A stretch of DNA of 64,000 bases. Source: Octopus vulgaris. Lineage: Eukaryota. Numbering within the stretch: position 1 is the first letter of the stretch; every line of letters starts with the position of its first letter. Location: positions 20,274,001 through 20,338,000 of the forward strand of contig OX597838.1 in NCBI GenBank assembly GCA_951406725.2, written 5' to 3'. Below, in pieces: positions 4,425 through 36,160 of the stretch. Made by a program: the position numbers and the translations under genes. A model generated the notes under the pieces. It saw only the letters and a program-made list of their open reading frames with translations, did no database searches and had not been told where the DNA came from.

Positions 4425-4630
4425 ATAAAGTTAATCCAAACAAGAAAACAAAAAGACAACAACGCGAGGATGTGGAACAAATAAAGTATTATTGGGCGCT
4501 CAGGAAAAAAGGGAAGAAGGAGGGTATGACGTTTCGAGCGGAGCTCTTCGTCGAAAACATAGGAGAAAGAAAGATCCCGAGGTGGGAGGACAGAGGGAAA
4601 AAAATGCAAGTGGTCTTCACGAAGTCACAT
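4425..4630 (-). mobile_element. Probable Penelope-like terminal fragment with degenerate hammerhead motif
   Basis: Abuts (TA)n. Minus strand 4524-4558: GUUU-UCGACGA-A-GAGC-UCC-GCUC-GAAA-CG-UC-AUAC. A truncated relative lies at ~40660-40755. Confidence 0.6.
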
Positions 4631-4693
4631 ATATATATAAGAAATACTAAATTTCTAAATCTCTCGTTGAGACATGTACGGTGGTGGGGCGAT

Positions 4694-5033
4694 AGAATGG
4701 TTGTATACTGTCAATCTAACATGAACGTGACAGTAGGGGGGTACACCACCGCTGTATAGCCCTAGGAAGCATCGACGCCTCCTGATGGCTTTGACACATT
4801 TTCCCCTGTGTACATTTACGAAGCCGAAGAAGGACAATGATCCTGAAACACGTGTCCCTAGATGCAGCTCCGGCGGCCGGGGATGTTTGTCTCCCCTTCG
4901 TAAATGTATATAAGGACACAGGGAAAAATGTGTCAAAGCCATCAGGAGGCGTCAATGCTTCCTAGGGCTATACAGCGGTGGTGTACCCCCCTACTGTCAC
5001 GTTTGTGTTAGATTGACAGTATACAACCATTCT
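4694..5033. repeat. Fold-back element with ~130-bp inverted arms and a hammerhead-like motif in the loop
   Basis: Arm 4694-4823 is the near-perfect reverse complement of 4896-5033. Loop on + strand: CCGAAGA-AGGA-CAAUGA-UCCU-GAAA-CACGUG-UC (4824-4856). Confidence 0.85.
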
Positions 5034-5455
5034 CTCTCTCTCTCTCTCTCTCCCCCTCTCTCTCTCTCTCTCTATATATATATATATATATATATATATA
5101 TATATATATAAATGTGAAGGCACATTCTGACTGTCATTGCCTGCTATTCATTGTTGGTCAGTGACTTGGCATTTGGTTGTAATTCACATAACTTCTCTTC
5201 TTTCACTGAGGGGTGCGTGGATTCCTTTGGTATTGTATATTGTACAAGCGAGTCAGGAATTAATGTCTTCAAAGAGAAACTATATACATACACATATATG
5301 CATACATATATGCAGACATATGTATGTATGCGTATGTATATATATATATATATATATATATGTATGTATGTATGTATGTATGTATGTATGTATGTATGTA
5401 TGTATGTATGTATGTATGTATGTATGTATGTATATATATATATATATATGCACAG

Positions 5456-5685
5456 GGCGGCGAGCTGGTAGAATCGTTACCACACCGGGCGAAATGCTTA
5501 GCGGTATTTCGTCTACCGTTACGTTCTGAGTTCAAATTCCGCCAAGGTTGACTTTGCTTTTCATCCTTTTGGGGTCGCTTAAATAAGTACCAGTTATGCA
5601 CTGGGGTCGATGTAATCGACTTAATACCTTTGTCTGTCCTTGTTTGTCTCCTCTATGTTTAGCCTCCTTGTGGACAATAAAGAAC
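5456..5685 (+). mobile_element. tRNA-derived SINE family 2, monomer
   Basis: Head GGCGGCGAGCTGG.AGAA.CGTTA, B-box-like GAGTTCAAATTCC, conserved body (family consensus GTCGACTTTGCCTTTCATCCTTTCGGGGTCGAT, possibly a Meta-type SINE domain), tail ...AAAGAA. Other copies at about 9815-10037(-), 11092-11486, 12416-12618, 14160-14590, 15465-15620, 19865-20072, 24206-24381, 26075-26275(-), 34650-35295, 44317-44918, 45457-45690(-), 46400-46935, 49602-50265, 53608-53832, 58381-58790. Confidence 0.9.
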
Positions 5686-33559: not shown

Positions 33560-33960
33560 AATGATATAAATAAGCAAAGAAACGCGCTTGGGCTTCATAT
33601 ATAACATATATGCATACATATATACAGGTAAATATATGTATAGGGCTATATATAGAAAGAGAAACAAAAGCTGACCTTTTATATATAAGTACATAGATAT
33701 TTATATATTTGCTGAACAGATTTACATGAAGTACAAAAGATACGGGAAACTAAGTGAAGAGGGTGTAGTATTTCAGGTCCGACAGCTATTTCTGTAGACA
33801 CAGAATTATGTAATAGTCGTAATGTTGGCAAATAGAGTGTGCAAAGAGTCATAGATAAGCAACCAGAAGTGGATGCATATAAACATTACCGTAACCCCGG
33901 CCTCCTTCTTCAGGGTGGGGAGATAGCCGTATTTCCCCTCTGAAGGCGCACGAACACATG
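33560..33960 (-). mobile_element. Probable Penelope-like terminal fragment with long-stem-II hammerhead-like motif
   Basis: CUGAAGA at 33913-33907 and GAAA-UAGCUG-UC-GG at 33792-33779 on the minus strand. Confidence 0.45.
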
Positions 33961-35774
33961 CACTAACACGCTATCATAAATACACCGGGGTGTTGTAAGA
34001 AAGAATTCACTTCAAACAAACTGTTTTTTTTTCTTTTTTGCTCATTAGGCGCAGGAGTGGCTGTGTGGTAAGTAGCTTGCTAATCAACCACATGGTTCCG
34101 GGTTCAGTTCCACTGCGTGGCACCTTGGGCAAGTGTCTTCTACTATAGCCTCGGGCCGACCAAAGCCTTGTGAGTGGATTTGGTAGACGGAAACTGAAAG
34201 AAGCCCGTCGTATATATGTATGTATATATATATATATATATATATATATATATATATATATATATATATGTGCGTGCGTGTATGTTTGTGTGTCTGTGTT
34301 TGTCCCCCTAGCATTGCTTGACAACCGATGCTGGTGTGTTTATGTCCCCGTCATTTAGTGGTTCGGCAAAAGAGACCGATAAAATAAGTACTGGGCTTAC
34401 AAAGAATAAGTCCCGGGGTCGAGTTGCTCGACTAAAGGCGGTGCTCCAGCATGGCCGCAGTCAACTGACTGAAACAAGTAAAAGAGTAAAAGAGTATTAC
34501 ATCATTTCGATCGTATTTCAGAATGTCATTCGTTATTTTCCTAACTGAGTCAAATGGTGGCTGCCAGGAAATGCGCAGATAATTGTTGACAATTTTTCAG
34601 ACCTTTTATATTAGCTCAAATACAATCACTTGGATTATTTATACAGAGGAAGGCAGTGAGCTGACGGAATTGTTAGCACGCCGGGTGAAATGCTTAGCGA
34701 TATTTCGTCTGCCGTTACGTTCTGAGTTCAAATTCCGCCGAGGTCGACTTTGCCTTTCATCCTTTCGGGGTTGATAAATTAAGTACCAGTTCCGCACTGG
34801 GGTCGATGTAATCGACTTAATACCTATGTCTGTCCTTGATTGTCCCCTCTAAGTTTAGCCCCTTGTGGGTAATAAAGAAATAGATATTTCGTCTGCCGTT
34901 ACGCTCTGAGTTCAATTTCCGCCGAGGTCGACTTTGCCTTTCATCCTTTCGGGGTCGATTAAATAAGTACCAGTTACGCACTGGGGTCAATATAATCGAC
35001 TTAGTCCGTTTGTCTGTCCTTGTTTGTCCCCTCTGTGTTTAGCCCCTTGTGGGTAATAAAGAAATAGATATTTCGTCTCCCGTTACGTTCTGAGTTCAAA
35101 TTCCACCGAGGTCGACTTTGCCTTTCATCCTTTCGGGGTCGATTAAATAAGTACCAGTCACGCACTGGGCTCAATATAATCGACTCGGTCCGTTTGTCTG
35201 TCCTTGTTTGTCCCCTCTGTGTTTAGCCCCTTGTGGGTAGTAAAGAAATAGGTATTACGTCCTTCTTTACATTCTAAGTTAAAATTCCGCCGAGGTAGAC
35301 CTCGTCTGTTATACGTTCAGAATAATAAAATAAATGGTAGCTGAGCACTGATGTTAATGTAATCATCTTATAGCCTGTTCTGGAATTGCTGGCCTTATGC
35401 CAAAATACGAAATCATTATTTCTACAATAGATTTTAAAAAAATTAATAACAATGAAAAAATACTGTGCGGTATTAAAAAATAAAAATTATTTGTTTGTAA
35501 GCTTAAAATAGGCTTTTATTAACCATGTATTATTGAAAATGCATTCATAGAGTACAGAATGGTTATTATCAGATTAGCCTAGAAACAAGTAAATTTGGCC
35601 TAGTTTAGGCTAGAGAAAGTTAATTTGACTTTAGTCGTTTTTCGACTTAAGTCGTATCTCCTGGAACCAATTAACGACGTAGGGTGAGGTATGCCTATAT
35701 ATATGTAAAAATAAAATGAGACAACAAAACCAAGGAAGTGTAAAATTTCTGGGACATTTATAAAGAGAAAGGTA

Positions 35775-35822
35775 GTCTTACAGCTGTTTCGGGGATATGA
35801 GGGATATCCCTTCACCAGAGAC
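35775..35822 (-). ncRNA. Minimal type I hammerhead-ribozyme-like motif (A6G variant)
   Basis: GUCU-CUGGUGA-AGGGAUAU-CCCUC-AUAUCCCC-GAAA-CAGCUG-UA-AGAC: 4-bp stem I, 7-bp stem II, palindromic ACAGCUGU stem III, GUA triplet. Confidence 0.75.
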
Positions 35823-36009
35823 GATATGGGAGAGTTACATAGATGGAAACAGAGTTCAATATTAGAAGTTATTTTGGGAAGGGAGAAATACAGGAAGCAT
35901 AAAGGGAAATATGAGAATAAAAATGTCTGTATATATATATATATATATATATATATATATATATATATATATATATATATATAAAGAGAGAGAGAGAGAG
36001 AGAGATGAT

Positions 36010-36160
36010 CGTGGGTAAGGCCAGACTAATTCGTTAATTTCCTGAGGATGTGGTCATAACCCCGAAATATTGAATGTAAGGCAAGTCTACATTAGTTCAT
36101 ATATTTGTTTCCTTGTGATTTGCCTTGCATTTACTTCGCATTGTTCTGGCCTTACCCACG
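36010..36160 (+). mobile_element. Short inverted-repeat-bounded fragment containing a hammerhead-like core
   Basis: 16-bp perfect inverted repeat CGTGGGTAAGGCCAGA / TCTGGCCTTACCCACG; CUGAGGA-U-GUGGU-CAUA-ACCCC-GAAA-UAUUGAAUG-UA at 36042-36078. Confidence 0.6.

Follow-up and report, generated by a model that had tools for sequence, protein, structure and literature searches.

Type I hammerhead motifs in Penelope-like element ends and a likely retrozyme in a 64-kb stretch of the Octopus vulgaris genome

We analysed 64,000 nt of Octopus vulgaris DNA (contig OX597838.1, positions 20,274,001-20,338,000; the genome comprises 2.8 Gb in 227 contigs), hereafter the window, which carries six motifs with the layout of a hammerhead ribozyme. 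As far as sequence can tell, all six are type I minimal hammerhead structures in multi-copy repeat families (families 1-6, numbered like the motifs), and they are predicted to self-cleave. Five of the families would be terminal repeats of Penelope-like elements (PLEs), one of them weakly assigned, and family 2 would be a protein-free retrozyme, copied by PLE enzymes and likely from a circular RNA template. We give this combined reading a probability of roughly three in four. The motifs are as follows:

4554-4528 (core start to cleavage site), minus strand: motif 1, with a GUC site, a 4-bp stem II, an extra A after A9 and a palindromic ACGU stem III
4824-4856, plus strand: motif 2, with a GUC site, a 4-bp stem II and an 8-nt palindromic stem III
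12907-12871, minus strand: motif 3, with the core GUGAACA (a G3-C8 swap), an extra G and a UUU site
33913-33781, minus strand: motif 4, with the canonical core CUGAAGA, a GUC site and a stem II region of ~114-115 nt
35818-35779, minus strand: motif 5, whose family core is the canonical CUGAUGA
36042-36071, plus strand: motif 6, with the core CUGAGGA in the window copy

Stem I of motif 2 and its family has 6 bp and continues into a rod; in the window copy its 5' strand is gone at an inversion junction. Motif 3 has a stem I of 7 bp, a stem II of 5 bp and the palindromic stem III AAUAUU, and stem III of motif 4 reads ACAGCUGU in the family.

A relaxed descriptor, composed after the motifs were known, recovers four of the six in the window at a score of at least 7, compared with 0.31 expected; none of 150 block-wise dinucleotide shuffles reaches four. 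Motif 4 escapes it on account of a stem II region of ~115 nt. Motif 1 scores low, the window copy having a C3U change of its own and a weakly paired stem I, a weakness of the window's family 1 subfamily. The same descriptor gives one weak additional match in the window (216-188, minus strand; U3-A8, score 6), which the strict scan misses and which is possibly due to chance.

We also applied an independent descriptor that leaves positions 3, 4, 7 and 8 free and requires base pairing in stems I and II and a stem III that is a perfect palindrome. Over ~1.36 Mb of fetched loci (partly overlapping and picked around motifs) plus the window, it finds 133 matches in 16 families, versus 0-1 in each of 10 shuffles. 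The 3-8 pair is of the Watson-Crick type in all 16 families (nine C-G, six U-A and one G-C), including all 11 that were not used as queries, a retention that speaks for selection acting on the fold. At position 4, 14 families have U and two have C. A looser scan yields 80 matches outside the query labels, forming 31 clusters (four of which are unlabelled query families), against 5-7 matches in shuffled sequence. Altogether, the six query families and 11 further ones were seen in the ~1.36 Mb.

Family samples consist of the best 40 matches scored per search rather than random copies, and the 232-2552 candidates of a first look are not copy numbers. For the core tallies, a fuzzy count was dropped for family 4 (too loose) and was off-target for families 3 and 5, so that strict counts are given instead, the family 4 tally coming from an alignment of 22 old copies. 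The core of family 1 is CCGACGA (U4C) in 45 of 51 copies, and that of family 2 is CCGAUGA (also U4C) in 46 of 54, with C4 in 53. Family 3 has GUGAACA in 44 of 49 strict matches (G3 in 48, C8 in 45), and no alternative letter reaches 10% at any core position in contigs of four sequencing runs. Half of the old family 4 copies (11/22) retain CUGAAGA. In family 6, the 3-8 pair is mixed (n = 28): U-A in 13 copies, C-G in seven, U-G in six and C-A in two. Fixed cores that are truly non-canonical are thus confined to U4C in families 1 and 2 and G3-C8 in family 3.

The family cores have the 3-8 pair, G5, A6, A9, GAA, A15.1-U16.1 and NUH site of type I hammerheads, position 4 being C in families 1 and 2. 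Stems I and II are paired and stem III is short and palindromic, as in the dimer type. Stem II of family 4 has moderate support: its region measures ~114 nt throughout the family and folds well as the family majority sequence (-32.8 kcal/mol). Covariation is seen in the 3-8 pair across the 16 families, in the shifts within family 6 and between family 2 and a relative in locus L360 (L-numbers label fetched genomic loci). In Rfam, no hammerhead family appears among the best 150 of the 289 window matches, which are mostly false microsatellite matches, and nothing reaches the gathering score in six loci.

The sequence-only reading of this DNA had proposed the six hammerhead layouts, and all are present at the places it gave, each in a multi-copy family. 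Its expectations that such motifs exceed their frequency in shuffled sequence and that family consensuses hold conserved, covarying structure are borne out by the 133 matches and the 3-8 pair. Its claim of non-canonical cores applies to families 1, 2 and 3, where these are fixed, and fails for two window copies: U3 of motif 1 is a private mutation, and G6 and the unpaired C before GAAA in motif 5 reflect decay of that copy.

Family 2 is represented in the window by two facing arms:

4637-4823, minus strand: inverted arm, unit positions 73-267, ending at 3' site B (tailed)
4824-5036, plus strand: sense arm, unit positions 1-213, ending at 3' site A (tail-less), beside (TC)n(TA)n

The family is built from a unit of 363 nt whose longest stop-free frame has 67 codons. 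Insertions span 0.2-2.3 units and run continuously round the unit, across the cleavage site and head-to-tail; L248 contains two complete hammerheads. Arms exceed one unit in 29 of 88 cases and two units in three, the longest being 827 nt (~2.3 units). The 3' ends fall at site A (209-213) or at site B (264-268), 55 nt apart, and an A arm faces an inverted B arm in 26 of 49 distinct insertions. Microsatellites adjoin 37 of these 49, with (TA)n as targets, and target duplications of 11-14 bp are found at nine of 12 non-microsatellite sites, versus 2% in the null. In the same 49 insertions, none of the 15 free 5' ends shares upstream sequence with another, and they lie at 13 different unit positions. 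Among the 30 loci picked for the segment just 5' of the core, every one either ends or runs on into the 3' part of the unit itself. In a sample selected by upstream segment, three of 44 arms start at unit positions 358-360, inside stem I just 5' of the core, a possible stop or start site of the reverse transcriptase (RT).

Folded as a circle, the family 2 unit is predicted to reach -129.2 kcal/mol, compared with -90.0 +/- 5.7 kcal/mol (z = -6.9), as a rod closed by stem I; eight control stretches give z values of -1.5 to +1.7. Two units are predicted to pair through the 8-nt palindrome of stem III (-37.7 vs 2 x -14.0). The relative at L360 570-975 is 67% identical and has a canonical core, compensatory stem changes, an inverted arm and a longer tail. 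Family 2 thus has the features of a non-LTR (long terminal repeat) retrozyme, namely a tandem unit within 150-450 nt that has no open reading frame (ORF) and bears a type I hammerhead, with a predicted self-paired circular fold. On this sequence evidence, it is likely a retrozyme mobilised by PLE enzymes.

When PLE protein pieces were compared with 139 family 2 and 3 loci, two loci matched, one per family. The family 2 locus is L086, where (276-1776) a young copy lies directly behind the CA-rich untranslated region (UTR) of a decayed PLE endonuclease. The endonuclease is stop-ridden; the family 2 copy matches the unit at 97% identity, and the unit tail is already repeated upstream. The arrangement may reflect insertion into an old PLE, a template switch or a parent element.

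Three further tandem hammerhead units were met by chance in flanking sequence and are candidate retrozyme families. L018 (minus strand, 210-992) has a 356-nt unit with a U3-A8 core, units 99.6% alike and a circular z of -5.4; its inverted arm has a second end ~65 nt further. L027 (594-1425) has a 564-nt unit (circular z = -4.8), and L160 (minus strand, 1786-2570) one of 485 nt (circular z = -0.6).

The fixed G3-C8 core belongs to family 3, which occupies the following parts of the window:

12778-12924, minus strand: inverted arm, reference positions 11-155, ending at site A; PLE pseudo-long terminal repeat (pLTR)
12924-13057, plus strand: sense arm, tailed, reference positions 64-197, starting within one base of the predicted cleavage site
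13094-13315, both orientations: three more family 3 tail fragments, interspersed with (TA)n

Here sites A and B are 59 nt apart, A/B pairs occur in 32 of 62 cases, and duplications of at least 9 bp in 18 of 26, versus 3%. Family 3 has a sharp 5' limit, and 40 of 57 arms reach past the core (a tail-selected sample with a few segmental duplicates and edge-cut arms). Just before this limit, nine of 16 full-length arms have a G where the read-through template has C (p = 0.0015), which suggests a capped start site 23 nt before G3. Most family 3 copies would then derive from uncleaved RNA.

Longer copies place this family at the end of a PLE. Three of 29 free 5' ends have an upstream UTR in common, and L362 contains an open frame for the C-terminal part of an endonuclease 1.4 kb upstream, with 44% identity to another PLE piece (E = 1.6e-21) and a match to the family 1 endonuclease (E = 2e-6). 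The common UTR and this frame rule out an ORF-less element. A circular form was likewise rejected, as none of 126 arms wraps around and the fold has z = -0.3. Cleavage in vivo might be betrayed by an accumulation of 5' ends at the cleavage site, a sign that we considered and discarded: none of 57 family 3 arms starts at positions 61-68 (tail- or upstream-selected samples), and in family 2, one of 44 arms starts within 4 nt of the site (tail- or upstream-selected sample). About six family 3 arms, that of the window included, do start at 61-65 in a biased sample chosen with the window copy, so there may be a small 5'-end peak at the cleavage site.

Two observations concern the start of family 3. 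Upstream of it, at ~7310-7335 of L362, a branch-point-like motif, a pyrimidine tract and an AG resemble a splice acceptor; in Drosophila Penelope, an intron ends at the hammerhead, according to the portion of PMC4209133 consulted. The 9 nt just after the family 2 cleavage site equal the family 3 5' start (L248 ~2298-2310; L303 ~1370-1382), possibly by chance.

The remaining four families are also PLE ends, judging by their arrangement, and lie in the window at these positions:

4428-4628, minus strand: family 1, a 5'-truncated PLE 3' end (pLTR) in (TA)n, with a GIY-YIG frame upstream in L250, L252 and L265
33690-33924, minus strand: family 4, an old truncated PLE 3' end, with a weak endonuclease match upstream in L331
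35709-35924, minus strand: family 5, a truncated PLE 3' end, assigned by the gene order in L247
36007-36212, plus strand: family 6, a PLE 3' end with a short inverted arm (36007-36025) and a tailed sense arm

Five of 20 extended family 1 regions contain one endonuclease family (92-100% protein identity; PF01541, E = 4.4e-4, below the cut-off), and in three of the five it lies on the same strand, 2.6-2.8 kb upstream of the motif across a CA-rich UTR. Families 1 and 2 are young, with copies 97-99% alike; a diverged inverted fragment (71%) of a 3' end related to family 1 lies at 40665-40765. For family 4, the weak match in L331 is ~1.05 kb upstream (E = 3e-6; one of 29 loci). In family 5, L247 contains on one strand an RT-like frame, a GIY-YIG domain (PF01541, E = 0.0055, below the cut-off), a UTR and the hammerhead pLTR, with an inverted pLTR at its 5' end, and in L245 and L246 its endonuclease precedes its UTR. 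The L247 frame is labelled RT-like after a motif rather than a Pfam match. In L159 of family 6, an RT (PF00078, E = 1.1e-8) and an endonuclease-like stretch lie directly upstream, terminating no more than ~100 nt from the motif; L151 also has an RT, so that ORF links are present in two of 25 loci.

An RT or GIY-YIG frame, decayed or truncated, thus lies upstream of the hammerhead in families 1, 3, 5 and 6, and weakly so in family 4; among the sampled loci of these five families, none has a full-length intact ORF. The insertions show 5' truncation, an inverted 5' copy, a tail at one end, target duplication and microsatellite targets, quantified for family 3. Two 3' end classes are visible by eye in families 5 and 6; the 16 copies shown for family 1 share one end. 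Tails measure 55-59 nt in families 2 and 3 and are longer in family 5. Families 1, 3, 4, 5 and 6 are therefore classed, from sequence, as putative pLTRs of endonuclease-bearing PLEs, weakly for family 4.

The window itself contains one PLE coding remnant:

15640-16535, minus strand: decayed PLE ORF remnant with an endonuclease core at 16159-15935 (own profile, E = 0.0015), cut on its 3' side by a short interspersed element (SINE)

It belongs to an old family with matches 66-77% identical. A link between it and the six motifs was rejected, as none of its 20 loci has similarity to any of the six families. In several loci of this old family (L167-L185), a decayed hammerhead-like stretch with the stem III palindrome of families 4 and 5 is visible by eye 3' of the match. 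Two pieces of a frame in L095 have no match in Pfam.

The sequence-only reading had listed this remnant among its observations on the motifs; it is real, and it is an unrelated, older family rather than their partner. The suspected link to RT and GIY-YIG ORFs was found elsewhere, for five of the six families (weakly for family 4), the sixth being a tandem unit of retrozyme type. Inverted arms accompany motifs 2, 3 and 6, the number of inverted repeats anticipated, and the elements border on (TA)n or other microsatellites, as described. The small elements it envisaged are for the most part ordinary truncated PLE ends, and family 2 alone is a unit of retrozyme type. The diverse radiation of PLE-derived and retrozyme-like hammerheads is substantiated by the six query and 11 further families.

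These observations can be combined into a mechanism. As in the PLE literature, the GIY-YIG endonuclease would nick AT-rich DNA on both strands, and RT would begin at two internal RNA sites, A and B, yielding one arm with a tail and one without, frequently in inverted orientation and each shortened to a variable extent at its 5' end. Because sites A and B fit the scheme established for the anole PLE (PMC11167929), PLE enzymes most likely made all of these insertions. On family 2 RNA, RT would pass the ribozyme site and circle the unit more than twice, as on a circle formed by dimeric self-cleavage and ligation. On family 3 RNA, it would mostly halt at the likely capped start 23 nt before the core, pointing to an uncleaved template. 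With their 3-8 pair retained, the variant cores probably represent slow, dimer-dependent or protein-dependent ribozymes rather than dead ones. The family 3 copies imply that cleavage before copying is rare, and slow or protein-gated ribozymes would fit the retention of the fold as well.

Comparisons with published work refer to the parts of the sources that were covered. Minimal hammerheads in metazoan PLE pLTRs, their diversity, U3-A8 pairs and dimer dependence were described by Cervera and de la Pena in 2014 (PMC4209133). The octopus motifs share with these the type I layout, short stem I, extra base after A9 and palindromic stem III, and also the many unrelated families per genome, mostly single truncated copies, opposite-strand pairs and U3-A8 covariation. 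They differ in the family-fixed G3-C8 (family 3) and U4C (families 1 and 2), which the article as covered, supplements excluded, does not mention, and in the 114-nt stem II region of family 4, compared with 6-8 bp. Among natural core variants, the covered part of PMC3088659 includes U3-A8 and a viroid U4C whose reduced activity in vitro suffices in vivo, and does not include G3-C8. For natural G3-C8, the literature covered, including PMC3088659, PMC6155905, PMC3884650 and PMC8495972, gave only engineered mutants; the 2017 paper of Lunse, Weinberg and Breaker on PLE variants and the PMC4209133 supplements lie outside this coverage and may list G3-C8 or U4C. By title and beginning of abstract, no article on octopus hammerheads was found, and an octopus repeat-annotation paper contains neither 'ribozyme' nor 'hammerhead'.

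The PAc Poseidon element of the green anole (PMC11167929) is inserted by cutting and extending both strands of the DNA, and RT begins at two internal RNA sites whose spacing sets the tail. Its main template is RNA that has not been cleaved; cleavage depends on protein, and C3G/G8C brings back part of the activity. The families described here resemble it in their tailed and tail-less ends, AT-rich targets and uncleaved RNA template, and differ in tail length (55-59 nt, longer in family 5, vs 30-40 nt). G3-C8, an engineered partial-rescue mutant there, is the natural family state in family 3. Inverted copies, tails, a (TA)n bias and ORF-less derivatives of PLEs have also been reported (10.1101/2021.04.23.441226). 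Like the non-autonomous Chlamys elements of that study (MRC1), family 2 is an ORF-less PLE derivative found head-to-tail at microsatellites; the Chlamys elements mostly have no hammerhead, whereas family 2 has one and a predicted circular fold.

PLEs have been named as a strong candidate mobiliser of retrozymes (PMC7229834), and a later study (10.64898/2026.07.22.740005) argues for this from co-occurrence and phylogeny; the words 'tail' and 'target site' are absent from the part of it covered. Family 2 resembles the metazoan non-LTR retrozymes of both sources in being an ORF-less tandem unit with a type I hammerhead and a self-paired circle, located beside autonomous PLEs, and its 363 nt compare with the 350-390 nt of mussel retrozyme units. 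It differs in its U4C core and PLE-type minimal ribozyme, in a circle that is here predicted from sequence, and in its dispersed insertions with the PLE two-start-site footprint, inversions and target duplications.

Several points weigh against the assignment of five families to PLE ends and of family 2 to a retrozyme with a circular template. Cleavage, ligation and circular RNA were seen for none of the six families, only assembled contigs having been examined; contigs from sequencing runs presumed to be RNA include parts of both family 2 and family 3, and contigs cannot reveal ends, strand or circles. Published minimal hammerheads cleave poorly (PMC4209133), and eight of nine frog retrozyme dimers failed to cleave (10.64898/2026.07.22.740005), as far as these sources were covered. 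The stem II alignment consensus of family 4 is weak (-4.3), its copy L123 has z = +0.6, and its PLE link is a single locus. The ORF links come from decayed remnants, the Pfam GIY-YIG matches are under the curated cut-off, and neither the RT-like frame of L247 nor the endonuclease of L245 has a Pfam match (two of four pieces tested). The family 2 copy in L086 sits 0.9 kb behind a decayed PLE endonuclease, a possible parent. Finally, family 3 seemed ORF-less until longer copies were examined, and the same could apply to family 2.

This last concern leads to the alternative that an autonomous PLE, with a coding part that escaped sampling, carries family 2 as its tandemly repeated pLTR, all six motifs then being ordinary PLE ends. 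The course of family 3 and the endonuclease remnant in L086 speak in its favour; we nevertheless judge it improbable, as upstream sequence is common to none of the 15 free 5' ends, which lie at 13 unit positions, all 30 loci picked just upstream of the core stay within the unit or end, and in L086 a stop-ridden endonuclease contrasts with a 97%-identical family 2 part whose tail is repeated upstream. More serious is the possibility, which we consider unlikely, that PLE enzymes mobilised family 2 from linear read-through transcripts of tandem genomic copies, with no circle and no role for the ribozyme. A linear multimer would explain read-through of the cleavage site, and arms of up to 2.3 units, just as well, ORF-less head-to-tail derivatives without hammerheads exist (MRC1; 10.1101/2021.04.23.441226), and U4C reduces activity in vitro (PMC3088659), in the parts of these articles covered. 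A linear template does not account for the closed rod formed by the unit, in which hammerhead stem I serves as the stem (z = -6.9), nor for the stable circular folds of two other tandem hammerhead units (z = -5.4 and -4.8; the third, at -0.6, does not fold so), and family 2 has no sharp 5' limit, unlike family 3. Arms longer than the unit without such a limit, together with the closed rod, make a circular template the best explanation for family 2, and the linear multimer is its main rival.

The U4C and G3-C8 cores could also be crippled or dead ribozymes, fixed by drift in successful masters because PLE copying does not need cleavage. Family 3 copies stem mostly from uncleaved RNA, insertion in vitro does not require cleavage (PMC11167929), and fixation within a family only indicates descent from a master. 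On the other hand, G3-C8 takes two changes that restore the pair, the Watson-Crick 3-8 pair is kept in all 16 families, with family 6 passing via U-G to U-A, and U4C recurs in the unrelated young families 1 and 2, where the remaining core and the stems are intact; loss of function is therefore doubtful. To chance matches in AT-rich, repeat-rich DNA we give practically no credence: although the first descriptor was loosened after the motifs had been seen and the additional window match at 216-188 is unsupported, the test with free positions refutes this explanation by its 133 matches versus 0-1 in shuffles, its 3-8 pairing in 11 of 11 non-query families and the fixed position of the motifs within PLE ends. 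A bolder version of the retrozyme reading, which we hold tentatively and at less than even odds, would add several young retrozyme families (363, 356 and 564 nt) whose circular RNAs are reverse-transcribed by PLE enzymes from two start sites, and the first natural G3-C8 hammerhead, one of several attenuated cores that would stay slow or protein-gated and thereby let uncleaved or re-ligated RNA persist as template. Such retrozyme families would amount to a direct genomic footprint of the long-presumed partnership of PLEs and retrozymes.

The window is rich in microsatellites and SINEs. The core of one SINE occurs in ~26 copies, and its 3' part of 184 bp (or 172 bp) is found in tandem at 34650-35300, 11071-11486, 49601-50263 and 58376-58792. 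A tandem array of a 126-bp repeat (7721-9078; 10.8 copies, 97% matches) has an open repeat frame of 125 codons on the minus strand, and other tandem repeats lie at 61688-62298 (period 202), 60985-61099 (19/37) and 9485-9793 (164 bp). Frames at 21020-21989 resemble a transposase remnant of a DNA transposon, probably hAT-like.

Since hammerheads in PLE ends are already known, most of what we describe is ordinary and of a known kind; the new elements are a retrozyme with the PLE two-start-site footprint and a family-fixed G3-C8 core. The natural, fixed G3-C8 and the recurrent U4C widen the hammerhead descriptor and reveal what canonical searches and Rfam miss, and with the variant cores nature offers material for asking whether slowness or assistance by protein is a tuned property of PLE ribozymes. 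As to which enzyme moves retrozymes in animals, the case is still made from co-occurrence and phylogeny. In family 2, the paired-end footprint specific to PLEs is found on an ORF-less template of more than unit length, which makes both the partnership of PLEs and retrozymes and the circular-template model directly testable, given one short RNA and two mapped start sites.

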